Positions 22,544 to 40,102 of a stretch of DNA of 64,000 nucleotides are shown here, piece by piece. This stretch comes from a bacterium (GTDB lineage Bacteria; UBA4055): assembly GCA_029559475.1 (NCBI GenBank), contig JAKQBN010000061.1:3488-67487 (forward strand), given 5' to 3'. Numbering within the stretch: position 1 is the stretch's first letter; every line of letters begins with the position of its first letter. The position numbers and the translations under genes were made by a program. Under the pieces are notes generated by a model. It did no database searches. It worked only from the letters and a program-made list of their open reading frames with translations, and was not told the origin of the DNA.

Positions 22544-22549
22544 TAAACC

Positions 22550-25441
22550 CTACTTGAAATATTTCGTAAAGGGTGTTTTCCAGCAGTTCTCGATCTGGAC
22601 CATGTCGATATCAATTATCTTTCCTTTGAAATCATAGACTACTGCCGAGTATTTGGAAGTTGTAGTACCTATCTGTACGGCAAGTCCGGTTTCTACAAGC
22701 TCTTCGGCAGATTCGAGATCTTTCATTTCGACAACGAAAGCTGCAGGTACTTCCGCGAACAGGGTCTTAACCTTATCGTTCACGTGAATATTGAAACCTT
22801 TTTTCCCTCCGATCGCCATTTCAGCCAGAGTTATAAGAGCTCCCCCTTCGCTAACGTCCGAAGCGGAAAGAATACTGCCGTTCTGTATGTTATTGTACAT
22901 GAGTTCATAAACATCTTTCGCTGTCTGCATTTTTATTTCGGGAACCCGGGTTCCGAGTTGTCCCAGCCTGTCGAAGAATATCGATCCTCCGAGATGTGCT
23001 GCACTGTAATCGCCGATAAGGAGGATAGGAGAACCTGATCTTTTGAGATCGGGCGAAACAGTCTTTCTCCAGTCATCAGTGACCGCTCTTGCAGAAACGC
23101 ATACAACCGGCGGAATTTCTATAGTAACATCTTTCGATTTGTAGGTTGATGAAAGCGAATCTTTACCTGAAATGATAGGAGTTCCAAAGAATTTGCAGGC
23201 CTCACTCAATGCTACGGCCGTCTGGTACAGGTCGGCAAGATTCGTTTCTGTCGGTTTCGGCCAGATGTGATTCTCTATCAAAAATATTCTTTTCGGGTCT
23301 CCGCCTAATGCTATCACGTTGCTCATAGCTTCATAATATGCCCAAAGAGTTCCTTTATACGGATCGATCCTATTCAGGACGGGATTTAACCCGTGCCCGA
23401 AAATAAGAGCCGCGTCAGAATTCTTTAAAGGTTTCAGGATGCAACCGCCGGTCGGACCGTCGTTCTTCTTTCCGCATAAAGGACCTTCCACGCATGTTCC
23501 CTGCACTCCGTGGTCGTACTGTCGGATCACGGGCTCTTTTGAACAGACATTGAGATGGGAAATTATATCTTTAAAAGCTTCTGTATAATTTATCTCTTCT
23601 TCATAATATTCGCCGTCTTCAAGCCCTGTCTTCGGCTTTGTTGTAGCGGTAATTGTCTCAAGAGGCTGGCCGTCGTGCAGGAACTCCATGTCGAGATCAC
23701 AGACGAGTTCGCCGCCGTCGTAAATGGTCAGCTTTTTTGTGTTCGTCGCCTCGCCGAGCACGAAGAATCCCACGTTATATTTTGCGCACACTTTTTTGAT
23801 CATGTCAAGCTTTTCTTTCGGAACGGCGGCTACCATTCTTTCTTGCGATTCTGATATCCACTTTTCGAATGATGAAAGTCCGGGATATTTTAACGGGATA
23901 TTGTCCAGATGAACAACTGCGCCTGTCTTCTCTCCCATTTCTCCGACCGCTGATGAATATCCGCCCGCGCCGCAGTCTGTGAGCGCGGTGAATACATCCA
24001 TATCGCGGAGTTCTAAAAGGCAGTCGAACATCCTTTTTTCTTCTATCGGATTACCGATCTGAACCGCACCGCTGTTCAGTGACGATGTCTTTTCCGTCAT
24101 TTCGGCTGACGAGAAAGTCGCGCCGTGAATACCGTCCTTGCCTGTTTTTCCTCCGAAGGAAACAAAAAGGTCGCCTTTTCCACATTTACCCTTTTTGGCA
24201 TACTTTATCGGAATTATTCCGTCCGCGCCTACAAGCACTGTCGGTTTAGGTCCGAAATCCTTGTGAAAATGGAATGAACCGTTGTTCGTCGGTATCCCCA
24301 TCCTGTTCCCGTAATCCCTGACGCCTTCTATGACGCCTGTGAGGATCCTTCTCGGGTGAAGACAACCCGGGAACACCTCTTCCTGCTTCATGTCCGGATC
24401 GCCCAGACAGAATACGTCTATTGAAGAAATGTTTTTCGCTCCCTTGCCAGTACCGGCTATGTCCCTTAATACCCCGCCCGTTCCTGTCATTGCTCCGCCG
24501 TAAGGATCGAGCCCTGAAGGAGAATTATGGGTCTCGGCCTTGATACAGATGCCGTATTCCACCCCATCCGCTTCGGCAAATCTGAAAACGCCGGAATTAT
24601 CCTCGAATTTCGAGACCACATCAGGATGCGCGATCGCTTTTTCGGTATCTTTCACAAGCCCTATGATCGATCTTTTTTCCGCGCCGTCTAATATCACTTT
24701 CGCCTTGAAGGTCTTATGCCCGCAATGCTCCGACCATGTCTGGGCTATAGTTTCCAGCTCGACGTCGTATGCGTCCCTTCCGAGTTTTTTATAATAATTC
24801 TGAATAGTTTTCATCTCTTTAAGATTAAGGAAAAGCTTATAATCCGAAGCCTCCATCAGCTCTCTATCGGTCATTGTCCTTATAGGGATCATCTCCGTCT
24901 TTCTCGGTTTAAGGCTGACAGTAAGATCATCGGGCTTTTTTAATAGCTGCATCTGTATCTGGGCGTTCATTAATGACCTGTCCCTGATCGTCTCAAGCTG
25001 AGCAGCACTTAGATCATCTTTAAAGTAATAAGTATATGATATCATCACCGCTTCATGAGCTATCTTTTTATCTTTAAGCTCCTCCGATATTGTTTCCGCT
25101 TCGGGATTCATGACCCCCGGCTGGAACGATATTTCGATCTTCTTCGGATATTCGCTGTAGAATTCTCCGTTCACGATATATTTTTCCGTTATCGGACATG
25201 CAAGTATCTCCGACGCTATCCTTCCGGCATCTTCGGCCGGGATCCCCTGAACGTAAAAGTTCTTGACTATCTTCATGTCTTTGATCTTTATATTGAGAAA
25301 TTCCCTGATCTGATGCGATATGTGCTTTTCTTTAGGATCGCTTACAGCAGGGATCACCGAGATTTTCTGAATGTTTGCCGACATTATGACCTCACATAAA
25401 AAATAAGCCCTAAATATACTGTTTTGCCGGATTCTTTGCAA
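22550..25441 (-). CDS. purL: Phosphoribosylformylglycinamidine synthase (long PurL form, AIR-synthase-related) with N-terminal extension
   Basis: WSEHCGHKTF (PurL SEHCxYK-type motif), SPSGLDPYGGAMTGTGGVLRDI, duplicated AIRS domains, 963 aa. The start may be the internal MSANIQKI rather than the TTG at 25441. Confidence 0.75.
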   Translation of the reverse strand: MQRIRQNSIFRAYFLCEVIMSANIQKISVIPAVSDPKEKHISHQIREFLNIKIKDMKIVKNFYVQGIPAEDAGRIASEILACPITEKYIVNGEFYSEYPKKIEISFQPGVMNPEAETISEELKDKKIAHEAVMISYTYYFKDDLSAAQLETIRDRSLMNAQIQMQLLKKPDDLTVSLKPRKTEMIPIRTMTDRELMEASDYKLFLNLKEMKTIQNYYKKLGRDAYDVELETIAQTWSEHCGHKTFKAKVILDGAEKRSIIGLVKDTEKAIAHPDVVSKFEDNSGVFRFAEADGVEYGICIKAETHNSPSGLDPYGGAMTGTGGVLRDIAGTGKGAKNISSIDVFCLGDPDMKQEEVFPGCLHPRRILTGVIEGVRDYGNRMGIPTNNGSFHFHKDFGPKPTVLVGADGIIPIKYAKKGKCGKGDLFVSFGGKTGKDGIHGATFSSAEMTEKTSSLNSGAVQIGNPIEEKRMFDCLLELRDMDVFTALTDCGAGGYSSAVGEMGEKTGAVVHLDNIPLKYPGLSSFEKWISESQERMVAAVPKEKLDMIKKVCAKYNVGFFVLGEATNTKKLTIYDGGELVCDLDMEFLHDGQPLETITATTKPKTGLEDGEYYEEEINYTEAFKDIISHLNVCSKEPVIRQYDHGVQGTCVEGPLCGKKNDGPTGGCILKPLKNSDAALIFGHGLNPVLNRIDPYKGTLWAYYEAMSNVIALGGDPKRIFLIENHIWPKPTETNLADLYQTAVALSEACKFFGTPIISGKDSLSSTYKSKDVTIEIPPVVCVSARAVTDDWRKTVSPDLKRSGSPILLIGDYSAAHLGGSIFFDRLGQLGTRVPEIKMQTAKDVYELMYNNIQNGSILSASDVSEGGALITLAEMAIGGKKGFNIHVNDKVKTLFAEVPAAFVVEMKDLESAEELVETGLAVQIGTTTSKYSAVVYDFKGKIIDIDMVQIENCWKTPFTKYFK

Positions 25442-25490
25442 GTTTATAAATAATTAAAAAATACCTTATTATTAATTATAATAATTTCTG

Positions 25491-25519
25491 TTGACACGGA
25501 TTTTAACATACTTTATATT
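25491..25519 (+). promoter_or_regulatory. Sigma70-like promoter (TTGACA-N17-TATATT) for arcC and downstream kor genes
   Basis: TTGACA at 25491-25496, -10 TATATT at 25514-25519. The ORF-track start of the next ORF is a TTG inside this promoter, so the true start is downstream. Confidence 0.45.
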
Positions 25520-25547
25520 TTCTTCCTGTTTAATTAAATCTGCAGGG

Positions 25548-26501
25548 ATGCAAATGTACAACAAAAGGGTCGTGATCGCGATCGGGGGCAACTCACTCAC
25601 TCCGACGGACAATTCCAACTGGATAGGTTCCCAGTTCAAGAACACAAGAACAAGCATTGAATCGCTTATTCCGCTTGTAGAAAAAGGATATTCTGTAACC
25701 ATTACTCACGGGAACGGACCGCAGGTCGGCGTAGCTTTAAGAAGGGTCGAAGAGACCAGGGATAAACTTCCCGATATCCCTCTGGGCGTTCTTGTAGCGG
25801 ATACTGAGGGAAGCATGGGCTATATGATCGAACAGTCGCTTCAGAATAAATTATTCGATAAAGGGCTGAAGATCCCTGTTGCTACGATACTGACCCAGGT
25901 TCTCGTGGACCAGAACGATCCGGCGCTCACCAATCCTACTAAATATATCGGCAGCTTCTATACGGAAGAGGAAGCTAAAAAACTTGCCGCTGTGAACGGC
26001 TGGATCGTAAAACAGGACGCTGACAGAGGCTGGAGAAGGGTCGTAGGCTCTCCGAAACCTATAGACATTGTAAACAAAAATATAATAAAACAGCTGCTGG
26101 ATCAGAAAAATATTGTTATAGCTGCAGGCGGAGGCGGAATACCTGTATATCTTGACGAGAAAAAGCATTTTGAAGGCGTGGATGCGGTTATCGACAAAGA
26201 TATGGCGAGCGCTCTACTCGCAAATGAGATCGGAGCTGACGAACTTTTTATTATGACGGCTGTAAGCAAGGTTTCTCTCAATTTTAAGAAACCGGACCAG
26301 GTCGATCTTGATGTAATGACACTGTCCGAAGCTGATAAATATCTGAACGAGGGACATTTCCCCTATGGAAGCATGGGTCCGAAAATGAAGTCGGCCATTA
26401 TGTTTTTAAGGAACGGCGGAAAAAGAGTGATCATTACCGCTATCGATAATCTTATGGACGCTATTGAAGGTAAAGACGGCACAAGCATTGTGCAGGATTA
26501 A
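25548..26501 (+). CDS. arcC: Carbamate kinase
   Basis: MQMYNKRVVIAIGGNSL..., ITHGNGPQVG, GWRRVV(G)SPKP, IAAGGGGIPV. This is a near-canonical carbamate kinase. Confidence 0.85.
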   Translation: MQMYNKRVVIAIGGNSLTPTDNSNWIGSQFKNTRTSIESLIPLVEKGYSVTITHGNGPQVGVALRRVEETRDKLPDIPLGVLVADTEGSMGYMIEQSLQNKLFDKGLKIPVATILTQVLVDQNDPALTNPTKYIGSFYTEEEAKKLAAVNGWIVKQDADRGWRRVVGSPKPIDIVNKNIIKQLLDQKNIVIAAGGGGIPVYLDEKKHFEGVDAVIDKDMASALLANEIGADELFIMTAVSKVSLNFKKPDQVDLDVMTLSEADKYLNEGHFPYGSMGPKMKSAIMFLRNGGKRVIITAIDNLMDAIEGKDGTSIVQD

Positions 26502-26518
26502 CATAAATAAAACTCAGG

Positions 26519-26806
26519 ATGGAAATCACAATGAGTGAAAAAATCAATATCCCGGATCACTACAGAAGATGGGAAGCCGATATAAAGATCGGTAAAAAAG
26601 ACGACCATGTTACGATCGGCTACTGGAGAGACGGCTGTAAAGGTTGTGGAATATGCGTAGACGTATGCCCCAAAAAAGTTTGGGAAATAATCGAAGCGAA
26701 AGACAAGTGGAACGGACAGGTGGTTCAGGTGACTGACGCATCCAAATGCATCAAATGCATGCTTTGCGAGATACACTGCCCGGATTTCTGCATAAAGATC
26801 TATTAA
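26519..26806 (+). CDS. korD: 2-oxoacid:ferredoxin oxidoreductase delta subunit (2x[4Fe-4S] ferredoxin)
   Basis: CKGCGICVDVCP and CIKCMLCEIHCP motifs. First gene of a 4-gene oxidoreductase cluster. Confidence 0.8.
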   Translation: MEITMSEKINIPDHYRRWEADIKIGKKDDHVTIGYWRDGCKGCGICVDVCPKKVWEIIEAKDKWNGQVVQVTDASKCIKCMLCEIHCPDFCIKIY

Positions 26807-26827
26807 AAAATTAAAAGAGGTATAACC

Positions 26828-27961
26828 TTGAAGAAATCAGTACGATTCTACTCCGGAGCGGAACTTGTGGCGATAGCGGCTGTTGATGCCGGCTGCAGGT
26901 TTTTCGGAGGTTATCCTATTACTCCTTCCTCAGAGATAGCTGAAACCATGTCTCTAATGCTGCCTAAGGTCGGAGGAACATACATACAAATGGAGGACGA
27001 AATAGCCGCTATGGGTTCGATTATCGGAGCTTCTCTAGCCGGCGAAAAGGTCCTGACTGCTACCAGCGGTCCCGGATTTTCTCTTAAGCAGGAAAATATC
27101 GGATATGCCTATATGGCTGAAGTTCCATGCGTAATTTGCAATGTTATGCGCGGAGGCCCGTCAACTGGTCTTCCTACAGCTTTGGCTCAGGCTGACATTA
27201 TGCAGGCTAAATGGGGAACCCACGGAGATCATCCCGTAATAGCTTTAACTCCCGCCTATCTTGAAGAAATTTATGAGCTCACTATTAAGGCTTTCAACTT
27301 TGCTGAAATTTACAGAATGCCTATAATGCTGCTTCTCGATGAAGTAATTGCTCACCTGAGTGCTGCGATTGAGCTTCCGGACAAAGAGCGTCTTGTTATC
27401 AAGAACAGAAGAAGACCGACCGTGCCTCCGGAAAAATATTATCCCTACGATACTGCCTACGGAGATGTACCCCCGATGGCTAATTTCTTTGAAGGTTACA
27501 GATTTCATGTAACAGGTTTAAGCCACGATAAGACAGGATTCCCTACTACCGACCCTGAAATTGTACAGGCTGACCAGGAAAGGCACTTGAGAAAGGTGAA
27601 CAGCAAAAAAAGCGAGATCGTTGATTATGAGTATTATAAAATGAAAGATGCTGACATAGTGATCTTCGCCTATGGCTCGACGGCCAGAGCCGCAAGAGTA
27701 GCTGTTGACAATGCCCGCAGTCTCGGAATTAATGTCGGAATGATGAGACTCAGAGTTATATGGCCTCTCCCTGATGCCGAAATATTAAAACTTTGCAGTA
27801 AATCAAAAGCCATAATCATTCCAGAAATGAACATGGGACAATTAAGCGAAGTTATCGAAAGATATGCTGCTGACAGAACTAAAATAATGAGAATAAATCA
27901 TGTAGGCGGGGTTCCGATCCACCCGACAGATATACTCAATGTAATAAAGGAGGCGTTATAA
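26828..27961 (+). CDS. korA: 2-oxoacid:ferredoxin oxidoreductase alpha subunit
   Basis: Pyruvate/2-oxoglutarate:ferredoxin oxidoreductase alpha domain (GGYPITPSSEI...). Overlaps korB by 1 nt. Confidence 0.8.
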   Translation: MKKSVRFYSGAELVAIAAVDAGCRFFGGYPITPSSEIAETMSLMLPKVGGTYIQMEDEIAAMGSIIGASLAGEKVLTATSGPGFSLKQENIGYAYMAEVPCVICNVMRGGPSTGLPTALAQADIMQAKWGTHGDHPVIALTPAYLEEIYELTIKAFNFAEIYRMPIMLLLDEVIAHLSAAIELPDKERLVIKNRRRPTVPPEKYYPYDTAYGDVPPMANFFEGYRFHVTGLSHDKTGFPTTDPEIVQADQERHLRKVNSKKSEIVDYEYYKMKDADIVIFAYGSTARAARVAVDNARSLGINVGMMRLRVIWPLPDAEILKLCSKSKAIIIPEMNMGQLSEVIERYAADRTKIMRINHVGGVPIHPTDILNVIKEAL

Positions 27962-28815
27962 TGGCTTTCGAATATGAAAAATATCTTAGAATGGATAAAA
28001 TACCTCACCTCTGGTGCCCTGGATGCGGGATCGGAGTGGTACTGAAAGCGATGCTGAGAGCCGTTGAGAATATGGGGTGGAACAAGGATGATGTAGCTTT
28101 CGTTTCAGGCATTGGATGTACAAGTAGAGCGCCCGGATACATTGACTGTAACACTCTCCATACTACACACGGAAGAGCTCTTGCTTTCGCAACGGGTATA
28201 AAGCTTGCAAGACCGGCAAAACATGTCGTCATATTCTCAGGCGACGGCGATGCGACAGCTATCGGCGGAAACCACTTTATTCACGCCTGCAGACGAAATA
28301 TTAATATGACGCTCGTCGTCGTTAACAACAACACCTATGGTATGACCGGCGGACAGCATTCCCCGACAACTCCGATAGGCTATAAGACCAGCACTACCGT
28401 TTACGGAAATATCGACCCTACATTCGATATCTGTATGCTGGCGAGAGGAGCCGGAGCATCTTATGTGGCGAGAGCTACTGTGAACAAAGGCAAACAGCTT
28501 GAAAAATATATTACAAAAGGTTTCGAACATAACGGATTTTCTGTTATCGTCGCAACCGCAAACTGCCATACCCAGTTCGGCAGAAAGAACAAGATGGGAG
28601 ATCCGATCTCCGCAAGAAAATGGATAGCCGACAGAGAAATCCCGCTGGAAAAAGCGAGAGAAATGAAGGCTGAAGAGCTCAAAGACAGGGTAATTACCGG
28701 CGAGTTCATTACAGAAGAACCTGAAAAAACAAGATGGGACAACTACAACCACCCCGTACATGAATACACCGAAGCTTATCAAACGATCCGGGATAAAGCT
28801 CAGGAAAAAAAATAA
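27961..28815 (+). CDS. korB: 2-oxoacid:ferredoxin oxidoreductase beta subunit (TPP-binding)
   Basis: WCPGCGIG and the GDGD TPP-binding motif (IFSGDGDATAIGGNH). Confidence 0.85.
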   Translation: MAFEYEKYLRMDKIPHLWCPGCGIGVVLKAMLRAVENMGWNKDDVAFVSGIGCTSRAPGYIDCNTLHTTHGRALAFATGIKLARPAKHVVIFSGDGDATAIGGNHFIHACRRNINMTLVVVNNNTYGMTGGQHSPTTPIGYKTSTTVYGNIDPTFDICMLARGAGASYVARATVNKGKQLEKYITKGFEHNGFSVIVATANCHTQFGRKNKMGDPISARKWIADREIPLEKAREMKAEELKDRVITGEFITEEPEKTRWDNYNHPVHEYTEAYQTIRDKAQEKK

Positions 28816-28833
28816 CAACGACGGAGACATAAT

Positions 28834-29439
28834 ATGAAAACAGAACATTATGAAGCCCGGTTTGCGGGAGTTGGAGGACAGGGCGTTATCCTTGCGGGAA
28901 AAATACTGGCTTACGGTATGGTAAGTTTTGAGGAATGCAAGGCTATTGAAACACCTACATATACCGCTCAAGTAAGAGGCGGAGCCACGAAAGTTGATGT
29001 CGTAATCGATAAAAAGCATATTGAATATCCCAGATCAGAAAATCTCGATTTTTTTCTCTCGCTCCATCAGAAATCCTTCAATATATATTATAAGGAAATA
29101 AAAAAGGATGCGATAGTCGTCGTAGATCCGAACCTTACGCCTAAAGTTCCATCAGAAATACCGCAGAAGCTTGTCGTCGTGGATCTTGTTGAGATAGCTA
29201 AGAAGACAATGGGTAAAACCCTTTACTCTGCAGTCATCGCTGTAGGACTTTTCGCGGGAATGACCGGGATAATATCTGACAGCCATATACAGCAGGCAGT
29301 TCTTGATAATGCGCCGAAAGGGACCGAGATAGATAACCTGAAGGCTGTCAAGATCGGTCTTGAGCTCGGGAAAAAAGCACTTGCATCGAAAGAGCATGTC
29401 GTCAGGCTCACGATAGAAGACGCGAAAATCACGGAATAA
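28834..29439 (+). CDS. korC: 2-oxoacid:ferredoxin oxidoreductase gamma subunit
   Basis: FAGVGGQGVILAGKILA is a gamma-subunit signature. Confidence 0.8.
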   Translation: MKTEHYEARFAGVGGQGVILAGKILAYGMVSFEECKAIETPTYTAQVRGGATKVDVVIDKKHIEYPRSENLDFFLSLHQKSFNIYYKEIKKDAIVVVDPNLTPKVPSEIPQKLVVVDLVEIAKKTMGKTLYSAVIAVGLFAGMTGIISDSHIQQAVLDNAPKGTEIDNLKAVKIGLELGKKALASKEHVVRLTIEDAKITE

Positions 29440-29448
29440 AATTAATTT

Positions 29449-29474
29449 AAAGCCGCTTTATGCGGCTTTTTTTA
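29449..29474 (+). terminator. Rho-independent terminator after korC
   Basis: AAGCCGC-UUUA-UGCGGCUU followed by a U-run. Confidence 0.55.
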
Positions 29475-29486
29475 ACGGAGGATCTT

Positions 29487-29924
29487 ATGCTCGAACAAAG
29501 CCTTCTTATGGTAAAACCCCATGCTTTTACCGCAAAAAAGACTGGGACAATTATCTCTATGCTTGAAGAAAATAATTTTCAGATCGTCGGTATAAAATCC
29601 ATCAAGCTGACTCCCGAACTGGCGAGAAGATTCTACTTCGTTCATCAGGGGAAAGAGTTCTTTGAAAGGCTGATAAATTATATGAGCACAGGAACAGTCG
29701 CCGCTATCTGCGTAGAAAAAGAGAACTGCGTAGCTGACTTAAGAAAATTTATCGGCGCTACCGACCCCTCAAAAGCTGCCGAGGGCACGATCAGAAAAGC
29801 TGTCGGCGTAACTGTGGAGCAGAACGGCGTTCATGCGTCCGATTCCGTCGATAACGCAAAAAAAGAGATCAGATTTTTCTTCTCGGACATCGAACTTTAT
29901 TCTTACAGATACCTGCAGTATTAG
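29487..29924 (+). CDS. ndk: Nucleoside diphosphate kinase
   Basis: LEQSLLMVKPHAF..., active-site His in NGVHASDS. The start is ATG 29487 with GGAGG RBS; the longer ORF-track start overlaps the terminator. Confidence 0.9.
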   Translation: MLEQSLLMVKPHAFTAKKTGTIISMLEENNFQIVGIKSIKLTPELARRFYFVHQGKEFFERLINYMSTGTVAAICVEKENCVADLRKFIGATDPSKAAEGTIRKAVGVTVEQNGVHASDSVDNAKKEIRFFFSDIELYSYRYLQY

Positions 29925-29933
29925 AGGATAATT

Positions 29934-29999
29934 ATGTCGCAGTTCCACAGGCTGATTTATATTGACAAAATGATAAATAAAGGGTCGTTACAGCTATGA
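29934..29999 (+). CDS. 21-codon upstream ORF (MSQFHRLIYIDKMINKGSLQL) that duplicates the WYL-regulator N-terminus and is translationally coupled (ATGA) to it
   Basis: A strong GAGGA RBS precedes ATG 29934, while the WYL ATG 29996 has no SD and overlaps the uORF stop (CTATGAGAG). The uORF peptide HRLIYIDKMINKGSL parallels ERIVYIDRTIKQKGSI of the downstream protein. Confidence 0.35.
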   Translation: MSQFHRLIYIDKMINKGSLQL

Positions 30000-30964
30000 G
30001 AGAAAAAAGCAAGATCGAGAGAATAGTCTATATCGACAGAACTATTAAGCAGAAAGGTTCAATAACAAAAAAGCAGATAATGGACTGGTCCGGTGCCTGC
30101 GAATCATCAGTTAAGAACGATATAGATTTTTTAAAAAATGAACTGAACGCACCCATTTATTATTCCGGCAAGAAAAAAGGCTACGCATACAAAGAAGATG
30201 TTCCATTCGAACTCTTAACATTTTTAAGCGAAAATATGGTGATCCTTTACGCTCTTTTGAAGGAATTCTTCTCGAACAGGAATTTTATGCCTGTAATAAC
30301 TGACAAGATACTAAAAGGTCTGAAGGATGAACTGCCTTCAGAATATAAAAACATTGATGGCAAGATAAGCTTCAGACTTTCTGAAGCTGAGAATCCTGAG
30401 ATGGATAAATTCGAGATCATTTTCAACTCGATACTAAACGAGACCTGCCTTGAAATTCATTATTCTGACGCTAAAGGCGTGAGTAGTGAGAGGAGTATCG
30501 AACCGCTTCACATTTACCACTATCAGGGGAAATGGTCTGTTTTTTCTTATTGCAAGAAAGCAAGGGATTACAGGGTATTCAACCTTTCGAGAATCACTAA
30601 ACTTGAAACAACTAGTAATAAATTCAGGATTGCTAATCACCCGCAGAACGTAATTGAAAATCACCTTAACGAAGCTTTCGGAGTAGCCAGAGGAAAAGAG
30701 ATCGAACAGGCCGTGATATGGTTCTATGAGCCGACAAGCCATCATGTAACCGATCAGAAGTGGCATCCTGATCAGATAACAGATCATATCACAAGAAAAG
30801 GCAAAAACATCCTGCAGTTTACGCTTCCAGTAGCTAAATACGAGGAGCTTGTCGGAAGAGTTCTGAGGTATGCGCCTGATGCTGAAGTCAGATCGCCAAT
30901 AGATATGCGTAATATGTGGCTAGACAAAATTAAGTCCCTTTCTGAAAAGTATCTGAAAAAATAA
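29996..30964 (+). CDS. WYL-domain transcriptional regulator (HTH-WYL-WCX architecture, BrxR/CapW-like)
   Basis: N-terminal HTH (IERIVYIDRTIKQKGSITKKQIMDWSGACESSVKNDIDFL). WYL-domain core (IEPLHIYHYQGKWSVFSYCKKARDYRVFNLSRI). C-terminal extension. First gene of the accessory island. Confidence 0.7.
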   Translation: MREKSKIERIVYIDRTIKQKGSITKKQIMDWSGACESSVKNDIDFLKNELNAPIYYSGKKKGYAYKEDVPFELLTFLSENMVILYALLKEFFSNRNFMPVITDKILKGLKDELPSEYKNIDGKISFRLSEAENPEMDKFEIIFNSILNETCLEIHYSDAKGVSSERSIEPLHIYHYQGKWSVFSYCKKARDYRVFNLSRITKLETTSNKFRIANHPQNVIENHLNEAFGVARGKEIEQAVIWFYEPTSHHVTDQKWHPDQITDHITRKGKNILQFTLPVAKYEELVGRVLRYAPDAEVRSPIDMRNMWLDKIKSLSEKYLKK

Positions 30965-31165
30965 AGCCTAACTTAATATTTACATAATAAGTCATTATTC
31001 TTGACCCGGTGCACCTGTATATTATTATTTATAGTATCTGTATAGAAAAAATAAAAATTAAGATATGAATGAACCATATACTTTTAATTTTCACAGATCA
31101 GGACAGTTTTTTTACCAGGTTGCATCTGTATCTTGTATTTATGTAATCCGGTATGAGGTGTAATT

Positions 31166-31399
31166 ATGGAAAAGATCAACTGTAAGAAATGCAGCGCAAC
31201 AATAGCTACTCCCGGCTATGCGAGTAGGACTTTTGCAGGAACTTATATGACCTGCTCCCAATGCGGTACTGAACTCAAAAAAGTTTCATATATTCTAAAG
31301 TTAAGTGAAGTTCAGGTCGCATTCGTATGTAAGAAATGCATCGCCATAATCAAAAAAAGGACCGGGCTCAAATGTCCGATATGCGGCACTATAAATTGA
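31166..31399 (+). CDS. Small double zinc-ribbon protein
   Basis: Four CxxC pairs: CKKC...CSQCG and CKKC...CPICG. 77 aa. RBS GAGGTG. Confidence 0.4.
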   Translation: MEKINCKKCSATIATPGYASRTFAGTYMTCSQCGTELKKVSYILKLSEVQVAFVCKKCIAIIKKRTGLKCPICGTIN

Positions 31400-31417
31400 T
31401 ATAAAGAAAATAAGGAG

Positions 31418-31651
31418 GTGAAAATGCAGAATGAAAAAGAAGCGGCTTACTGGAAAGCTGTTCAGAAATGGGCGGAAAAAGCGCAGACGCTTGTGCAGTA
31501 TCAGCAGAAAAACATGAAATGGTTCCTTTCGCCCGAGATAGTTCAGTGGTGCACGCCGAGCTACGAAAGTGAAGTGTCACAGCTTGAAAGAGAGGTCGAA
31601 AGACTCGAAAAAGAAGCTGACAGACTGGAAGTAGAAGCAGGATTAAACTAA
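31418..31651 (+). CDS. Small coiled-coil protein
   Basis: RBS AAGGAGG before the ATG. C-terminal EVSQLEREVERLEKEADRLEVEAG heptads. Confidence 0.35.
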   Translation: MKMQNEKEAAYWKAVQKWAEKAQTLVQYQQKNMKWFLSPEIVQWCTPSYESEVSQLEREVERLEKEADRLEVEAGLN

Positions 31652-31668
31652 ACAAAAAGAGGTGAAAA

Positions 31669-31884
31669 ATGAGCTTAGGGAAAGCTTTGCTTATCGGAGC
31701 TGCGGGGCTCGCGGCGGGATTATTAATAGCCGCATGGGCGGAAACAATGGACAGTGACTCATCAGATACTGATACGGATCTCGATCTTGACGATACCGGA
31801 GATTACACATATATCGGTGATTCGGATGAAACAATCGAAAGTGAGACTGATGAAACTTTGACAGACCAGATTCCGCAGGTATGA
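31669..31884 (+). CDS. Small single-pass membrane protein with a highly acidic Asp/Ser/Thr-rich tail
   Basis: RBS AGAGGTG. A TM helix LLIGAAGLAAGLLIAAWA is followed by DSDSSDTDTDLDLDDTGDYTYIGDSDETIESETDETLTD. Confidence 0.35.
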   Translation: MSLGKALLIGAAGLAAGLLIAAWAETMDSDSSDTDTDLDLDDTGDYTYIGDSDETIESETDETLTDQIPQV

Positions 31885-31908
31885 AAAAGGCGGGTAATTC
31901 CGCCTTTT
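31885..31908 (+). terminator. Rho-independent terminator
   Basis: AGGCGG-GUAAUU-CCGCCU followed by UUUU. Confidence 0.5.
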
Positions 31909-32008
31909 ATCCATGCGATTCTAGCAGACGTTATTATGATTCATGGATATACAATGGTATCATTGGAACTTAGAATCTCAAACTTAAATTAAAAGAAAGG
32001 AAATATTT

Positions 32009-32545
32009 ATGAAAAACGAAATCTATGACAAAACCAGGCTGCAAAGTGCCTTTGACAATCTTGACACTATACTCACGGAGTTAGATGTTAAAGATGAGTG
32101 TAGTAAGTTGTATAGCTTTATCGAATTTAAAGACTATGAAAAAGCCCTCGAAAGAGCCGAACTGATTATCATGAAACTACTGCCTAAATTCTGTACTAAG
32201 GAAGGCGAATTCTGCGAAGTTGATCAGTTTGTTATACTTGATTTTACTTATGCTATGTATGGCAAAGGATATTCTCTGTTCAAGCTCGGTAAATATTCTC
32301 AGGCTTATTTATACTTTAAAGATGTTTTTGACACTCTTCAGGAAAACTGCATTAGGCCTACCGGCGATCTGTTCTATTATATGGCTAAATCAAAACAGCT
32401 TTCAGATGATTTTGGTAAAGCATCGGCATTTTCATCAGGAAAGTTCTCAGGCTTCATGAAGCTTTTAGGACCCGAATTCCCTACCATTCCTGGAAATATG
32501 CGTGAACCAATTAAAAAACTAAAAAAGAAAGGTGATAAAAAATGA
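32009..32545 (+). CDS. Hypothetical protein, paralogous to the 40164 ORF
   Basis: The shared block FKDYEKALERAELIIMKL here matches AKKHYRKALTRAEIILSTL in 40164..40601. Overlaps the next gene (ATGA). Confidence 0.35.
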   Translation: MKNEIYDKTRLQSAFDNLDTILTELDVKDECSKLYSFIEFKDYEKALERAELIIMKLLPKFCTKEGEFCEVDQFVILDFTYAMYGKGYSLFKLGKYSQAYLYFKDVFDTLQENCIRPTGDLFYYMAKSKQLSDDFGKASAFSSGKFSGFMKLLGPEFPTIPGNMREPIKKLKKKGDKK

Positions 32546-33051
32546 TCATTCACGACTATTGCAAAAACTGTCCGTATTATCTAATAAATATGGCCGATAA
32601 GGGCTCACTGTCAAAAGAGGATAACGGTTCGGACACTATACTTGTTTTTCAGTCACCCGGCCGAAAAGAATGGGTAAATAAAAAGCCTTTAAGCTCAGAC
32701 TCTCCCCGTTCATGTAACGGGATCGTGTCGCGTTCCTGGGAAAGAACAGGAAGAAAGCGCGAAGAATTCGATATAACCAATGCGGTTCAATGCTATCCCG
32801 GTCAGGATCAGAAAACCAAACGCGATCTCCCGCCCGATCCCAAAGCCGTAGAACAATGCCTGTACTGCCTAGAGAAAGAAATTCTGTCTAAAAAGTATAA
32901 GATCGTTATTGCCTTCGGGAAAACTGCCGAAAAATCAGTGAACAGGATCGTTGAAAAACATAATCTTGATACTATCGTGATCAATTCTAAGCATCCTGTG
33001 GCAGGCGTAATAAAAAGAGATATTGATAATTTATGGACAAAGAAACAATAA
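32542..33051 (+). CDS. Uracil-DNA glycosylase superfamily protein (family-4-like layout) with divergent active-site motif
   Basis: N-terminal CKNCPYY, then ILVFQSPGRKE at the motif-A position (GEAPG in family 4), ITNAVQCYPG at the family-4 VKCRPP position, and a C-terminal KIVIAFGKTA. Confidence 0.45.
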   Translation: MIIHDYCKNCPYYLINMADKGSLSKEDNGSDTILVFQSPGRKEWVNKKPLSSDSPRSCNGIVSRSWERTGRKREEFDITNAVQCYPGQDQKTKRDLPPDPKAVEQCLYCLEKEILSKKYKIVIAFGKTAEKSVNRIVEKHNLDTIVINSKHPVAGVIKRDIDNLWTKKQ

Positions 33052-33785
33052 AAGGGGAATTTATGGATACTCTCTTAAGCGGTATTGATACAATAGACAG
33101 CGGACTGGAAGGATTTTCATTAGGAGAAATGGTTATCTCCGCTTCCAGGCCCGGGCATGGCAATATCTACCTTCTGTTGTCGATCGTGAGGGGAATTTAT
33201 TACGACTTCATTGATAGGTACAAATGCCTGGTTTTCTCGAACTCTGAAAAAAGCAGGCTAAAACCTTTACAGCCCGGAGATGAAGATATATTTATTTACT
33301 ATAAGTTCCAGAGCGATTCATTAACGGGTTTTTTCTCCGAACTTGAAGATCAGATTAAACTAAACGATACGAAGATCTTGATTATCGACTACAATGAAAC
33401 CAGTTTTCAGAAGAATAAGAACTTCTTCATCGGTCTTAAAAATATAGCAGTTAGAAAAAATATTCTTATCTTCATTAAATCGTATTTGACGCGGCAGTCC
33501 GCACGAAAATCGTGGTTCAATCCTCAGATAGCAGATATTGAGGGAGCACCAGTAGTTGAAAAGATCGCGGATAAGTATATAATCATGCACCGTCTTGATG
33601 TTCTCGGTATCAAGGATGCTTCCGGGCGTGATCAGACAAATATCGTCGATATCAGGCTCTGTGCAAGAGATCTGTGCCATACAGGCTCTAAGTACATTTA
33701 TTTCAACAGCGACAAGAATATTTTCGAAAATTTCACTCCGCTTCATAACAGATACGGGTACTACTATCTTTACAGTGAAAACTAA
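33033..33785 (+). CDS. DnaB-C-terminal-like (RecA-fold) protein with a degenerate Walker A
   Basis: VISASRPGHGNIYLLLSIV aligns with DnaB IIAARPSMGKTAFALN (K to N, T to I). ILIIDYNETSF matches the DnaB lvvIDYLQ block, LKNIAVRKNILIFIKSYLTRQ matches the LK-LAkEl-vPV block, and ADIEGAPVVEKIADKYIIMHR matches the SDLRESGAIEQDADvV-flyR block. No N-terminal helicase domain. Confidence 0.4.
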   Translation: MDKETIKGEFMDTLLSGIDTIDSGLEGFSLGEMVISASRPGHGNIYLLLSIVRGIYYDFIDRYKCLVFSNSEKSRLKPLQPGDEDIFIYYKFQSDSLTGFFSELEDQIKLNDTKILIIDYNETSFQKNKNFFIGLKNIAVRKNILIFIKSYLTRQSARKSWFNPQIADIEGAPVVEKIADKYIIMHRLDVLGIKDASGRDQTNIVDIRLCARDLCHTGSKYIYFNSDKNIFENFTPLHNRYGYYYLYSEN

Positions 33786-33817
33786 GACAGCAAAATAAAT
33801 AATTTAAGGGAGAATTT

Positions 33818-34165
33818 ATGACTATCCATTATTCAAAGCAAATTTACAGCGAATTAGCCACTATCAAAGCTGAATTTGACAGGATTGCTGAAAATTTATA
33901 CAAAATAAAAAAGAAGTATTATGCAATAAATTTCGACATCTCTGAGAATGAAAAGCTCGAAGAGGAGATATTCAAAAACGAGTGCGCCCTGGAAGCTCTC
34001 GAAGACACCGATGAAGAAATTTTATCAAAGATCCGTAATAAGATCGCAGGATTACAGAAAAGAATAGAAGATAATAAAAACCAAGATACGATACTGAAAA
34101 GCATTGATGATATTTTCTTGGATATTGATCAGAAAATTCAGATTCTGGATCACCAGATCGATTGA
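33818..34165 (+). CDS. Small coiled-coil protein
   Basis: RBS AAGGGAG. Heptad-rich sequence, 115 aa. Confidence 0.3.
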   Translation: MTIHYSKQIYSELATIKAEFDRIAENLYKIKKKYYAINFDISENEKLEEEIFKNECALEALEDTDEEILSKIRNKIAGLQKRIEDNKNQDTILKSIDDIFLDIDQKIQILDHQID

Positions 34166-34239
34166 GCATGACCCGTTCATTGAAATAGAATCAGACCTTT
34201 TACTGAAAACTCACTAAATTTTAATTAAACGGAGTAATT

Positions 34240-34455
34240 ATGAAAAACAACCATAAAATCAGCTTCATAAAGCCTGTACCTTATGCAGTGCCTGACTTAA
34301 GATTCTGCAATATATATTGCTTTAAAGAAATTATCATGCCTGATGACCGGATTGGCAATATCGGTGATTCATGGACATATTGTGTAATCGATTCGCAGGA
34401 AATATTTTATAATCCTTTATGTAAATCAAACGGAGACTATAGCTATGAATGCTGA
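34240..34455 (+). CDS. Hypothetical small protein
   Basis: RBS ACGGAG. 71 aa. Overlaps the next ORF. Confidence 0.25.
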   Translation: MKNNHKISFIKPVPYAVPDLRFCNIYCFKEIIMPDDRIGNIGDSWTYCVIDSQEIFYNPLCKSNGDYSYEC

Positions 34456-34861
34456 AAAAGAAATTACAGATAAGATTTTTTTTAAAAATCCCAGAACCGG
34501 AGAAACTCAGACTGTAGGCAGTAACTTAAACATCATATTTGGAGTGTTTTCCGTAATGTGCGGAATACCATTATTTATCAGAAGGCTTAACTCATGGGGA
34601 TATGTTATGCTAGCTTTACAAAGCGTGTATATGCTCCTATACCCTCAGTTCAGAGAAGGCGATTATTGCTCGATCTTTTTTTTACTTTTCGTTGAAATCA
34701 TAATCAGCTTATATTTAGGCATCAAAGGTAACAGGCTCCTTACGATCTATTACTTTGAGAACGGGTGGATTATGGAAAATCCTCATAATGAAATGGTCCG
34801 GAACACATTCAAAAAATGGAAACTTGAACCTGAAGTAATCCCTCGCAAGGGAGTCAAATGA
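34445..34861 (+). CDS. Hypothetical membrane protein
   Basis: Hydrophobic segments (IIFGVFSVMCGIPLFI, CSIFFLLFVEIIISLYLGI). Confidence 0.3.
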   Translation: MNAEKEITDKIFFKNPRTGETQTVGSNLNIIFGVFSVMCGIPLFIRRLNSWGYVMLALQSVYMLLYPQFREGDYCSIFFLLFVEIIISLYLGIKGNRLLTIYYFENGWIMENPHNEMVRNTFKKWKLEPEVIPRKGVK

Positions 34862-34885
34862 AAAACAGAAAAGAACAAATTTCTA

Positions 34886-35278
34886 TGCTACAAATGTAAT
34901 GGCAACGAAACAAGGCTACACAACCTGCGATCTGTCGGTATCGGAGGTCATACCGACAGGCAGGACTGTGTGAATTGCGATAATTACACAACTATTCTCA
35001 ACTGCGCAGAGCGCGAATTATTCGAAGAGATCTCACTCAGAATCGATAAGAACAGACTCAAATTCATCGGGATCATCAACGACGATAAAACCGAAGTAGG
35101 CTCAGTACACTTCGGAGCCGTTTTCTTATACAAACTCGATGATATTGAAAAAATAAAAAACACTACCGAAATCGAATCATACCAATGGCTGAGCATGAAA
35201 GAGATTGACGGTACAGATAATCTTGAAGAATGGAGCAGAATAGCTATGATCCTGTATAAAGATTTTTTCCTAAAATGA
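34886..35278 (+). CDS. Nudix-box-containing fragment (possible gene remnant)
   Basis: An in-frame ATG at 34886 gives MYKCNGNETRLHNLRSVGIGGHTD...ILNCAERELFEEISL. RELFEEIS matches the Nudix REUxEExGU core but the Gx5E spacing is disrupted. The ORF-track version starts at GTG 34970. Confidence 0.3.
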   Translation, partial: CYKCNGNETRLHNLRSVGIGGHTDRQDCVNCDNYTTILNCAERELFEEISLRIDKNRLKFIGIINDDKTEVGSVHFGAVFLYKLDDIEKIKNTTEIESYQWLSMKEIDGTDNLEEWSRIAMILYKDFFLK

Positions 35279-35348
35279 AAATTATTCAGCTTGACTTTAC
35301 CTCCCGGAAAATTGCATATTTACACAACCTGAATCGAGAGGTAAAAGG

Positions 35349-36278
35349 ATGGCGATTGTTAATGTTGAATATTGTGGTAATGTAATAATTCCTTCTTTGG
35401 ATATCGAAATTACCAACCAGCACATCATAAATGCAACGGAGTTTAATTTAAATATTTTTAAACGACAAGGCATTACTTTTACTGGAACTGGGCAAAATAT
35501 TTCACAAGTTGATATTGATTTTGATCCGAGTAAAAATGCCGTTCCAGATGTATGGAGGTATACAATAAAAATTGATAAAAAAAGATGTTTATCACTCGTA
35601 AAATCAAAAGTAGGTTACAGAACATGCCACGTTGAAGCATGTAAGAACTTCCTCAATAACAAAAATTTTCCTCAAGATGTAGATATTGCAAAATGCATTT
35701 CAAATGCAAAATGCAAATTTTATAAAAAATACCCAGTTATCCTTCTCCTTCTCGAATCTCCTCATAAAAATGAGTATACTAATGCTTTCATTCAAATCGC
35801 ACCAGCGCAAAAAAGTACAGGAAAATGCATAGAGAGTAATATAATAAGTCTAATAGAAGAAATAAATAAGCGCATAAATCCTCAATTACCCATAAATACA
35901 AACTACAAGCTGATAATAGCAAATCCTATACCGTTTCAAACTTCATTACACATTTTAAAAAATAAAGATTCAGGATTTGATGATAACCAAAGAAAGTTAA
36001 GAGATAGAATTTGGAAATCACTCTGGCATCAAAATAGCTTAAGATACAATTTTCTAAATCGTCTGAACAACGATTACAAGCCCGATCTTGTTATAAATGC
36101 CTGTACAGAAAATCTGCAACCTTTGGTTTCCTGTTGCATAATTTGCGGAACTTGCTATCCTTTAGTTGAAACCAAACACCCAGCTAATCATTGGAATAAA
36201 TATACAAAAAATAATAAAAGCAAATTCACTCCTGCGGAAATTCTGAAACTTAGATTTGGAATAGAAGTGATCAGATAA
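35349..36278 (+). CDS. Hypothetical Cys-rich protein
   Basis: 309 aa. RBS GAGAGGTAAAAGG. The C-terminus has CCIICGTCYP. Confidence 0.3.
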   Translation: MAIVNVEYCGNVIIPSLDIEITNQHIINATEFNLNIFKRQGITFTGTGQNISQVDIDFDPSKNAVPDVWRYTIKIDKKRCLSLVKSKVGYRTCHVEACKNFLNNKNFPQDVDIAKCISNAKCKFYKKYPVILLLLESPHKNEYTNAFIQIAPAQKSTGKCIESNIISLIEEINKRINPQLPINTNYKLIIANPIPFQTSLHILKNKDSGFDDNQRKLRDRIWKSLWHQNSLRYNFLNRLNNDYKPDLVINACTENLQPLVSCCIICGTCYPLVETKHPANHWNKYTKNNKSKFTPAEILKLRFGIEVIR

Positions 36279-36371
36279 TTCATTTCTCTATCATAACTCC
36301 TAATTTTTCTTTGACTTAAACCCTCATTCTTTGTAAATTCAGGTTATATTTTATAAAGGATCAACCCACAG

Positions 36372-38777
36372 ATGAGTTTATATGAAAAATTACAAAAAGC
36401 TACAAGCGAAGAAGATGTTAAAGACGCATATATCAAAGCTCTGGGATTAAAAAACTACTCGAAAAATCTGATTGACCTGCAAACAAAAGAAATCTGGTTT
36501 GAAGCAAAAGATACGAAAAGAAATTCAACGTACGCTATGTTCACACAATTGATGCATTATGTTCAGGCCGCTTTGAACAAAGGCGAATATATTCCGCCAT
36601 TTTTGGCAGTAATTGATACCGAAAAAGCAGCGATAATGAAAAGCTCGGATGTTATACCTTTCTTAGCAAAGAAAACAATAAAATGGGGTAAATCTGCGAG
36701 CCAGTACACACAAGAAGCGCTTGATGAAATCTCAACACATATCGGTACTCATTTTGTTTCGTTTAAAATATCTACGCATGAAGAAGAATTTATTAGCACT
36801 GTAAAAGAAGCTATAAAATCAGGCGATATAATCAGGACTAATATCACTCCTGATAACCTCAAGCAGGTATTTGATAAATGGGTATCTATGATAGGCAGGG
36901 AAATAAAAGAAGTCGATGAGAAAGATTATGCTTTGCTATTCTACGCGGATATTATGCACGATGGGGTAATGGCAACTCATAGTAATTTAACTGCTCAACT
37001 GCTACATAAAAACGACGCCCCGGTATTTAGCTTAAATGGGCACTTATACGAGCTTGGAAACAAGGAAGGTTACCGTCAGTTTTGGGCAATTTACCAAAAG
37101 CCACCTAAAGAGGAATACCGGAATTATTTACTTGAGAGGCGCGATAGTTTGATTCCTCTTGACGAGAGAGTATATAAAGGCGGCTATTACACACCTTTGA
37201 ATGTCGTAGATAAGGCTTACGATAAACTTACTGAAACATTAGGCAAGAACTGGCAGAAAGATTACATAGTTTGGGATATGTGTTGCGGGGTAGGAAATTT
37301 AGAGGTTAAGCATAGTAATCATCGAAATATTTTTATGTCAACATTGGATATGGCCGATGTTGATATTATGCAAGCTACAAAAACCTGCGTGGCAGCCCAG
37401 CGTTTTCAATATGATTATTTAAACGACGATATCACAGATAATGGACAAATTGATTATACCCTCACAAATAAAGTACCTTCAAGTTTACTGAAAGCTATAA
37501 AGGAAGAAAAAAAGATTTTAGTGTTGATTAATCCTCCCTATGCTGAATCAACAAGTTCAGATAATATTAATACAGGAGGGGCTTCAGACTCAAGTAAGAC
37601 TGGCATTGCAAAAACAAAGCTAGCACAATCAGCTATGAGTGAGTATGGTAAAGCAAGTAATGAACTCTTTACTCAGTTTGTTGTCAGAATAGCTAAAGAA
37701 ATGCCTAATGCAACTTTAGCTATGTTTAGCACTATGAAGTATGTCAATTCTCAAACATTAGAAATATTTCGTTCTGTTTGGAATGCAAAATATTTGGATG
37801 GTTTCGTTGTACATAGCAAAACCTTTGATGGGTTGAAAGGCGATTTTCCAATTGGATTCTTAATATGGAAAACGGATCAAAAATCAAAAACCAAACAACC
37901 CATAGTAGAAATATCCACTGAAGTGTTAGACAGACATGTCAATCCCATTGGTGAAAAATGCTTTTACAATATTTCTAACGATTTACTTCTAACTAATTGG
38001 ATAAAACGTCCCAAAACAAATGAAACAGAAGTTATCCCATTAAAAAATGCAATTACTCCTGCAACCGCGAATAAAGATTTAAGAGGAACTAAGTGGTCTA
38101 AAGATGCTCTTGCGTTTTGTTGGTGTAATGGTAATGATGTACAACAAGCTTCACGAACCGCATTATTCTCTTCTGGTTTCAATGGTGGTCATGGATTATT
38201 TGTTAATCCTGAAAATCTCTGGCAAGTCGCAATAATGTTTTCAGTTCGTCAATTAGTTAAACACACATGGGTTAATCATAATGACCAGTTTTTAATACCA
38301 ACAGAGCCATTATCTTATGAGTTTAAAACCGATTGTTTAATTTTCATGTTGTTTCATGGTAAAAATCTTTCAGCAAGTGCAAATGATCTAAAATGGAATG
38401 ATAAAAAGTGGTCAATAGTAAATCATTTCATCCCCTTTACTGAAGTAGAAGTAAATTCGCCAGGCCGTTTTGAATCGGACTTTATGGTTCAGTACCTGGC
38501 TGATAAAGAGCTTTCTCCTGAAGCTAAAACAGTTTTAGATGGGGGAAGAAAATTATGGCAAAGCTATTTTTCTGAGACTGATGTTAGATCTGTACGAGAT
38601 AAATACTGTCTTAACAGAACTGATGTCGGCTGGTATCAGGTTCGTAAAGCACTTGAAGAGAGAAATGCCAGCGGAGATTTCATTCCGGTTAGTTTCAAAC
38701 CCTTAGAAGAAGCATATAAGAACTTAACCGATAAGCTGAACCCGCAAGTTTATGAGCTTGGGTTCTTGCGTAAATAA
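36372..38777 (+). CDS. MmeI-like Type IIL/IIG restriction-modification protein (N-terminal PD-ExK nuclease + gamma-class N6-adenine methyltransferase + C-terminal target-recognition region)
   Basis: The N-terminus IDLQTKEIWFEAKDT...AMFTQLMHYVQAALNKGEYIPPFLAVIDTEKAAI parallels the MmeI catalytic region VDLFWPGILLIEMK...AYDQALDYF...LPRYVLVCDFQRFRL (D-x8/9-E-x-K). MTase motif I VWDMCCGVGNL. Motif IV VLINPPYAES. Confidence 0.6.
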   Translation: MSLYEKLQKATSEEDVKDAYIKALGLKNYSKNLIDLQTKEIWFEAKDTKRNSTYAMFTQLMHYVQAALNKGEYIPPFLAVIDTEKAAIMKSSDVIPFLAKKTIKWGKSASQYTQEALDEISTHIGTHFVSFKISTHEEEFISTVKEAIKSGDIIRTNITPDNLKQVFDKWVSMIGREIKEVDEKDYALLFYADIMHDGVMATHSNLTAQLLHKNDAPVFSLNGHLYELGNKEGYRQFWAIYQKPPKEEYRNYLLERRDSLIPLDERVYKGGYYTPLNVVDKAYDKLTETLGKNWQKDYIVWDMCCGVGNLEVKHSNHRNIFMSTLDMADVDIMQATKTCVAAQRFQYDYLNDDITDNGQIDYTLTNKVPSSLLKAIKEEKKILVLINPPYAESTSSDNINTGGASDSSKTGIAKTKLAQSAMSEYGKASNELFTQFVVRIAKEMPNATLAMFSTMKYVNSQTLEIFRSVWNAKYLDGFVVHSKTFDGLKGDFPIGFLIWKTDQKSKTKQPIVEISTEVLDRHVNPIGEKCFYNISNDLLLTNWIKRPKTNETEVIPLKNAITPATANKDLRGTKWSKDALAFCWCNGNDVQQASRTALFSSGFNGGHGLFVNPENLWQVAIMFSVRQLVKHTWVNHNDQFLIPTEPLSYEFKTDCLIFMLFHGKNLSASANDLKWNDKKWSIVNHFIPFTEVEVNSPGRFESDFMVQYLADKELSPEAKTVLDGGRKLWQSYFSETDVRSVRDKYCLNRTDVGWYQVRKALEERNASGDFIPVSFKPLEEAYKNLTDKLNPQVYELGFLRK

Positions 38778-38798
38778 ATATAAATCTTTCTCTGGAGG

Positions 38799-39839: not shown

Positions 39840-39865
39840 TAATTTTTCACTTACATCAATTATAT

Positions 39866-39891
39866 ATTATTAATATATATATATTAATAAT
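39866..39891. repeat. Perfect 26-bp AT-only palindrome ATTATTAATATATATATATTAATAAT
   Basis: Exact reverse-complement symmetry. It sits in a 320-bp AT-rich intergenic spacer inside the island. Confidence 0.6.
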
Positions 39892-40102
39892 TGAAGAACT
39901 ATATCGTCTTCATTCCATTGCAAACTTATGAATATTTAAAGTACTGCCCATTACAGAATCAAAAAAATGTTTATCTATTACTTAGGCACAATTAAGTATT
40001 ATATCAATTCGTATATTATTTTTTAATTATTACTTACAGCATTATTTCATATTCGAATATTTATAGCTATTATACATAAATTTTCATAATCGATTTTTTT
40101 AC

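Follow-up and report, generated by a model that had tools for sequence, protein, structure and literature searches.

Probable remnant of a displaced WYL-regulator allele between ndk and the WYL gene that heads a variable island

How does a regulator gene come to be preceded by a short reading frame that resembles its own beginning? The question is raised by a bacterial contig of which we analyzed a 64,000-nt stretch (the window, to which all coordinates refer)—between ndk and a gene for a WYL-domain regulator lies a 21-codon ORF whose peptide parallels the regulator's N-terminus and whose stop codon overlaps the regulator's start. A preliminary description took this mini-ORF for a diverged duplicate of the regulator's own N-terminus and for a leader on which its translation depends. 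Here we argue that it is, with high probability, the orphaned 5' end of a different, displaced WYL gene, left as a scar when one allele was replaced by another. We address the mini-ORF and the alleles that it resembles, the extent of the exchanged piece, translation across the junction, and the relation of the locus to known systems.

The mini-ORF and the two WYL alleles

The gene for nucleoside diphosphate kinase, ndk (29487–29924, + strand; Pfam NDK, 3.6e-46), ends in a TAG (29922–29924) that lies inside the Shine–Dalgarno (SD) region of the next reading frame—an SD-like AGAGGA at 29923–29928 (+ strand), 5 nt before the ATG at 29934, with an anti-SD duplex of -5.8 kcal/mol. From this ATG, 9 nt past the ndk stop, the 21 codons of the mini-ORF (29934–29999, + strand) encode MSQFHRLIYIDKMINKGSLQL and run to a TGA (29997–29999) that overlaps the WYL ATG (29996–29998); the shared ATGA (29996–29999) is a 4-nt overlap on one strand, and the arrangement is as the preliminary description had it. 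The WYL gene (29996–30964, + strand) begins 71 nt past ndk and encodes an HTH-WYL-WCX regulator of 322 aa with Pfam WYL and WCX domains; it carries the allele called type B below, which we regard as the incoming one. The ribosome-binding site of the mini-ORF, described earlier as strong, proved average for the window (-5.8 against a median of -5.5 kcal/mol for the 45 ORF starts scored). The WYL ATG, said to have no SD, is in fact preceded by an SD-like AAAGGG at 29979–29984 (-4.6 kcal/mol), although the spacer of 10–11 nt is a poor one.

The mini-ORF peptide aligns in register with WYL residues 5–23, with 9 identities in 19 columns, one gap, and a Smith–Waterman score of 43 (BLOSUM62). This score was reached by none of 20000 shuffles and by two of 7354 other 21-mers of the window, both in one overlapping region; the resemblance, which thus survives a statistical alignment test, is therefore real. 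The junction is the same in three assemblies (the window, ENA ERZ773361, and JGI 3300010353), with 0 mismatches in 12,969 nt, and is therefore not an assembly-specific error. Since the window, L002, and L003 are 100% identical and the scar occurs in one strain only, these loci provide no independent evolutionary replicate.

Homologues of the WYL protein fell into two groups: type B, which consists of the window protein and P0002, and type A, which consists of 11 proteins (P0003–P0013). P0002, at 70% identity, begins MNKKIERLFYIDRTIRQKG. The window's regulator (hereafter WYL-B) has 70–71% amino acid identity to P0002 and to its counterparts in L001, L009, and L016, against 47–52% to type A; these are the only type-B relatives found, and no donor closer than 70–71% is known. 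Type-A proteins with a source name are mostly labeled Candidatus Delongbacteria. The exact window protein (P0001) is labeled 'Clostridiales bacterium' at NCBI, and related records are mostly Candidatus Delongbacteria, with one 'uncultured Bacteroidia bacterium'; the source MAG probably bears a wrong taxonomic label.

All 11 type-A N-termini fit MSQFHRL[IV]YID[RK]xI (about MSQFHRLIYID[RK]MIK), and it is here that the mini-ORF finds its closest match—13 of 14 residues are identical (alignment score 69), 33 of 33 nt are identical to the syntenic type-A gene of L006, and tblastn with the type-A N-terminus places a match of 81% over 16 aa at the mini-ORF. All type-A proteins begin with a relic-like peptide, so that the mini-ORF represents the start of a type-A protein and does not copy WYL-B; on these alignments, its similarity to WYL-B is a family resemblance between alleles. 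Type-A origin is certain for 29934–29977, and possible as far as 29991 given a 3-nt and a 1-nt deletion: past 29977, GTTACA (29986–29991) could match the GSVT of the nearest relatives after these deletions, the stretch being too short and too A-rich for certainty. WYL-B, for its part, aligns to P0002 from its own Met, and its C-terminal tail is also type B. Apart from the 16-aa N-terminal match and the paralogous WYL-B, tblastn found no further type-A pieces elsewhere in the window, including the far end of the island. Among 20 other related loci no relic like the window's was found, the best upstream scores being 16–29 against 69 here. A phage or viral source of the type-B allele was considered and rejected; there is no viral-contig relative, and the single phage-record match has 23% identity.

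These comparisons bear directly on two simpler origins. Tandem duplication of the present gene's 5' end, followed by divergence, was the origin first proposed, and it would account for a peptide that lies in register with the WYL-B N-terminus at a score that no shuffle reached; type A, however, fits far better in score (69 against 43), in residues, and in nucleotides, and we count duplication as already refuted, with next to no probability left to it. A sequencing or assembly frameshift in one longer gene is just as hard to credit. One base added near 29987 does put the relic in frame with WYL-B (MSQFHRLIYIDKMINKGSVTAMREKSKIER...), and an extra G produces the fusion MSQFHRLIYIDKMINKGSVTAMREKS..., but the three assemblies are identical and WYL-B aligns to P0002 from its own start. 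Moreover, the fused product would hold two copies of the first-helix motif, an extension found in no homologue; because the fused frames would duplicate the first helix, the junction is not a simple frameshift. The preliminary description had suggested that a single continuous gene in related strains, with the upstream peptide in frame, would point to a frameshift here. Relatives do have one gene that starts with the relic peptide; it is, however, a different allele, about 49% identical, so the argument for a simple frameshift does not apply to it.

The break in homology and the exchanged piece

That the 5' end of the WYL gene bears a replacement scar, as was also suspected at the outset, is borne out by the nearest relatives, where an intact MSQFHRLIYID... 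gene occupies the same place and homology breaks inside the mini-ORF. In L006 the gene order is that of the window—purL(-), amino-acid kinase, ferredoxin, korABC, ndk, WYL, small ORFs, and a DnaB_C-like gene, and further on OAD-beta(-), tRNA-Leu(CAG)(-), and FtsK(-). An intact type-A WYL gene directly follows ndk in L006, in L012/L013, and in L017; in L006 its ATG lies 9 nt past the ndk stop, which is the start position of the mini-ORF. Both the AGAGGA and the 9-nt gap from ndk to the ATG are identical in L006, with close variants in L013 and L017, and to judge from this identity AGAGGA (29923–29928) is the original ribosome-binding site of the displaced type-A gene, now serving the relic ORF. 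By ndk identity, L006 and L012/L013 rank as the window's nearest relatives; the ndk protein is 88–90% identical to those of these type-A loci, against 77–78% to those of L017, L007, and the type-B loci.

Blastn finds the window (21957–29977) colinear with L006 (5–8044) across ndk and the first 44 nt of the type-A gene, but no further. Type-B similarity starts at 30011 (blastn), which leaves a junction interval of ambiguous origin (29978–30010, + strand) that holds the ATGA; assigning it to type A or type B was given up, as the stretch is A-rich and two MAFFT runs conflict. An exact match of 55 nt to L006 (29912–29966) spans the last ndk codons and the stop and reaches relic codon 11. We do not treat it as exceptional—one run within 4.5 kb is longer still, gene starts are also the site of other long runs, and the match to L013 is only 24 nt.

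The exchange can also be delimited on its far side. Amino acid identity to L006/L013 is 83–96% for the flanking proteins, OAD-beta reaching 96%, against 49% for WYL. Type-B similarity extends past the WYL stop, to 30994 in blastn with L001 (30 nt) and to about 31030 in MAFFT, where AATATTTAC..AAGTCA..TTG.C..ATTAT downstream of WYL-B aligns to L001/L009 and not to the type-A loci. This type-B-like region (30965–31030, + strand) contains a promoter-like site, TTGACC-16-TATTAT, at 31001–31028 (promoter scan). Blastn similarity to L006 resumes at the ATG of the Zn-ribbon gene (31166) and covers a block of small genes at 31166–31908 in two segments (31166–31426 and 31413–31908). The block encodes, on the + strand, a 77-aa Zn-ribbon protein (31166–31399; 70% to L006/L013), the product of a second 77-aa ORF (31418–31651; 80–82%), and that of a 71-aa ORF (31669–31884; 57–65%); type-B loci lack all three, and L001/L009 contain nothing that matches them. 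The type-B match reaches about 31030 and the type-A match resumes at 31166, and the swapped piece is therefore about 1.0–1.2 kb, comprising the regulator and its downstream promoter region. On the alignments, then, the left junction is at 29977–30011, within a few bases of the WYL-B ATG, and the right junction at about 31030–31166.

Two sequence features of this region may concern the regulator itself. The motif [CT]CTGTAT occurs three times in 31013–31135 (CACCTGTATA, GTATCTGTATA, GCATCTGTATC), in the stretch that separates the promoter-like site from the Zn-ribbon gene, and AATATTTAC-N-AAGTCA, upstream of the -35 element, is common to the window and to type-B L001/L009; both are candidate operator sites for WYL-B.

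The history that we propose begins with a type-A WYL gene that would formerly have adjoined ndk in this lineage, the relic being its ribosome-binding site and its first 14 to about 20 codons. Illegitimate recombination would have replaced the body of this gene with the 1.0–1.2-kb piece, that is, with a divergent type-B allele and its downstream promoter region, and would have left the old start out of frame, its reading frame now ending at the TGA that overlaps the new ATG. The original recombinant may have been a fusion with a duplicated first helix, freed later by a 1-nt deletion; this is only speculation, because the chance of an in-frame junction is 1 in 3.

The same mosaic could in principle have arisen with the opposite polarity: type B would be ancestral, as in L001, and an L006-like tract (ndk and the first WYL-A codons) would have replaced the left flank and ended illegitimately before the WYL-B start. 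Window–L006 identity does rise from about 0.78 to 0.85 exactly in ndk (29391–29977), where identity to L007/L001 falls to 0.70, against about 0.78 to all three upstream (25491–29390), a shift that suggests another recombination breakpoint close to the boundary of korC and ndk. In addition, the tRNA-Leu and the toxin–antitoxin pair that lie between ndk and WYL-B in L001-type genomes are missing from the window. The polarity is therefore not strictly proven, as the ndk–relic tract could itself be the incoming piece, and what the alignments establish is the origin of the relic, the break in homology, and the mosaic structure. The right side, however, is L006-like as well—in the Zn-ribbon gene and two small ORFs, in OAD-beta (96%), and in the OAD-beta/tRNA-Leu/FtsK order. 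Only WYL-B and its promoter are B-like, and type B is therefore most simply the insert; we consider the reversed history improbable. The change of nearest neighbor at the korC/ndk boundary lies near a hairpin at 29449–29469.

Replacement of type A by type B, the reading that we prefer for the window, involves alleles that trade places in other lineages too. The flanks of L007 (type A) and L001 (type B) are about 91% identical, yet the islands and the WYL alleles of the two loci differ; types A and B therefore alternate between close relatives elsewhere. The homology of these two loci ends 46 nt beyond tRNA-Leu (L007 7927, L001 5321) and what follows is unrelated, L001 having a toxin–antitoxin pair and a type-B island. 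By this comparison, the whole island has been exchanged between the close relatives L007 and L001, and no relic remains.

Translation across the junction

The relic keeps an SD, an ATG, and an open frame that ends on the ATGA shared with WYL-B, which raises the possibility that it still matters for expression. In all likelihood ndk, the relic, and WYL-B are co-transcribed, and ribosomes from the old initiation site would terminate on the ATGA and could reinitiate on WYL-B; the old initiation region would in this way still contribute to the expression of the new regulator, and WYL-B would probably also initiate alone. ATGA pairs have been documented to couple by termination–reinitiation (PMC6728339, PMC10666635). 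An identical 4-nt overlap joins three further ORF pairs of the window (32542, 52447, 57733), and the downstream ORF of one of them is without an SD. The overlap makes coupling plausible, and the claim that WYL translation depends on the leader ORF is unproven; that coupling makes a substantial contribution to WYL-B translation we put at roughly even chances.

One can accept the scar origin and still regard the relic as a neutral pseudogene fragment without a role, WYL-B being translated independently and the ATGA overlap being an accident of frame that requires only one frame in three. The start region is A-rich and unstructured—RNA 29900–30050 has a minimum free energy of -17.2 against a shuffle mean of -23.5 (z +1.75), and is thus less structured than shuffled sequence—and the weak AAAGGG is present, in a window where about a quarter of the ORF starts scored have nearly no SD. 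The first 11 codons of the type-A genes, moreover, display no excess synonymous conservation (0.54 against 0.49 in the rest of the gene, seven type-A genes, p = 0.24), a result on which a hidden cis element in these codons was also rejected. Neutrality is less at ease with an SD, an ATG, and an open frame that are all kept and that end exactly on the new start; ribosomes that load on the relic must terminate at the WYL-B ATG, and some influence, positive or negative, is therefore hard to avoid. We regard a neutral relic as quite possible, while leaning somewhat against it.

At the other extreme, the relic may by exaptation have become an obligatory leader, with WYL-B translated mainly by ribosomes from ndk and the old site, and the first 20 or so WYL codons may serve generally as a preferred crossover point. 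We think this unlikely; if true, it would mean that regulator-plus-promoter modules can be swapped 'plug and play' where variable (defence-type) islands begin, with the upstream expression signals undisturbed. Nothing in the fold, Rfam, and terminator scans of the region points to an autoregulatory device for the leader ORF. An attenuator or other RNA structure was dismissed, given the unstructured region (z +1.75) and no Rfam match here; the terminator scan found none on the + strand in 29300–31300 and none on either strand inside the relic or the junction. A -1 frameshift site fusing the relic to WYL-B was likewise discarded, there being no XXXYYYZ heptamer in 29970–29996.

The island, the regulator, and known systems

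The WYL gene heads a low-GC variable island (30000–41718) between ndk and the OAD-beta gene/tRNA-Leu(CAG). GC content is 0.30–0.40 from 30.0 to 41.9 kb, against 0.42–0.47 in the flanks, and homology to L006 resumes at 41719; as GC falls from 30.0 kb, the regulator therefore stands at the head of a variable island that looks foreign. No two of the related loci agree in island content, and the islands of sister loci include Cas10/RAMP, AbiEii, Fic, and PIN-type genes. A core is conserved in the window (31166–33785), L001, L004–L008, L013, and L019: the WYL regulator is followed by a DnaB_C-like (RecA-fold) protein of about 230–250 aa, for which L005 has an ORF of only 119 aa, and the two are usually separated by small ORFs and a double Zn-ribbon protein of 77 aa. 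Compared with PADLOC and PHROGs, the WYL/DnaB_C-like cassette matched no system. In the window the cargo around this core includes a UDG family-4-like protein, a NUDIX protein, an 801-aa protein, and a sigma-54-type AAA protein; elsewhere it includes Cas10/RAMP (L008), Fic and AbiEii (L004), and two AAA_14 proteins (L005). The sigma-54-interaction AAA+ protein (38799–39839, 346 aa) is preceded by the 801-aa protein, which has no family match; the RtcR/PspF-type 'CARF_AAA_HTH' models of PADLOC match only the AAA part of the 346-aa protein, which lacks the N-terminal sensor region.

The tRNA-Leu(CAG) beside the island is 90–92% identical between loci, against about 78% in the flanks (window 43054–43139, - strand; L001 5191–5275; L007 7797–7881; L006 15521–15606). 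It stands to the far right of the island, after OAD-beta, in the window and L006, and between ndk and WYL in L001, L007, and L008; as its position differs, the island lies on different sides of the tRNA in different lineages. ARAGORN places tRNA-Leu genes at 20861–20955 and 43054–43139, neither of which is in the Rfam gathering-threshold scan; that scan listed only two tRNA-Gln (58896–59078).

The value of the locus lies in its legibility. It pins the exchange of a regulator allele, where a variable island begins, to a 34-nt junction interval; the old start can still be read, and sister genomes preserve intact 'before' states. The locus shows that a WYL regulator can be exchanged together with its downstream promoter region without displacing the neighboring genes. 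It also offers a natural example of a pseudogene fragment turned into an upstream ORF that overlaps a new gene's start. In practice, its use is mainly in annotation—the mini-ORF is not to be called a gene—and in studies of island-regulator turnover.

The regulator itself belongs to a well-known architecture. Its WYL domain matches PF13280 (1.3e-14, residues 138–204) and PADLOC WYL models (3.5e-31 and 2e-23), and its WCX domain matches PF25583 (1.3e-7, residues 237–307). In the HTH region no Pfam HTH family passed for the window protein; PADLOC PDLC01457 aligns from residue 6, and two type-A homologues carry a PF26109 match. Profile comparison gives PafBC, BrxR, and CapW as PDB relatives, the likeness to BrxR/CapW being confined to the WYL domain. 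HTH-WYL-WCX regulators of the BrxR/CapW/PafBC type head phage-defence systems and islands (PMC9122601, PMC9122589, PMC9122588). Like the BrxR homologues (PMC9122601), the window's WYL gene opens a variable island, here one of low GC. It differs from BrxR in lacking its own promoter and inverted-repeat operator upstream; it is joined to the 3' end of ndk, whose transcript it probably shares. The promoter scan found no promoter-like site in 29300–30000, the one that it did find (31001–31028) being downstream of the WYL gene, and PADLOC recognized no known defence system among 10 island proteins (7 of them downstream of the regulator), only the RtcR/PspF-like AAA and a faint MTase hint. For want of a promoter and operator of its own, for its attachment to ndk, and for the lack of a PADLOC system, we therefore file the protein as a WYL-WCX regulator and not as a BrxR orthologue.

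As a short ORF directly upstream of a gene, the relic recalls attenuator leader peptides and regulatory uORFs; unlike attenuator leaders, it comes without alternative hairpins, a terminator, a regulatory codon run, an Rfam match, or conservation beyond one strain. Like ATGA-coupled gene pairs (PMC6728339, PMC10666635, PMC12548453), relic and WYL-B share a 4-nt overlap on the same strand and a poor downstream SD; unlike in those pairs, the upstream partner is a 21-codon pseudogene relic and not a functional gene, and there is therefore no stoichiometric rationale for coupling. The closest parallel is of another kind. Gene-fragment scars occur at the borders of allelic and cassette replacements, for example those of swapped specificity or variable-island genes, and the window has their features—a truncated 5' fragment of a gene that is intact in synteny, an abrupt divergent allele after it, and the remainder of the old gene missing. 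Unlike the usual gene-fragment scar, this one keeps its SD, its ATG, and a frame that stops exactly on the new start codon, and it therefore formally behaves as an upstream ORF; the locus as a whole is a clean and thoroughly documented case of an event whose kind is already known, and not a new mechanism.
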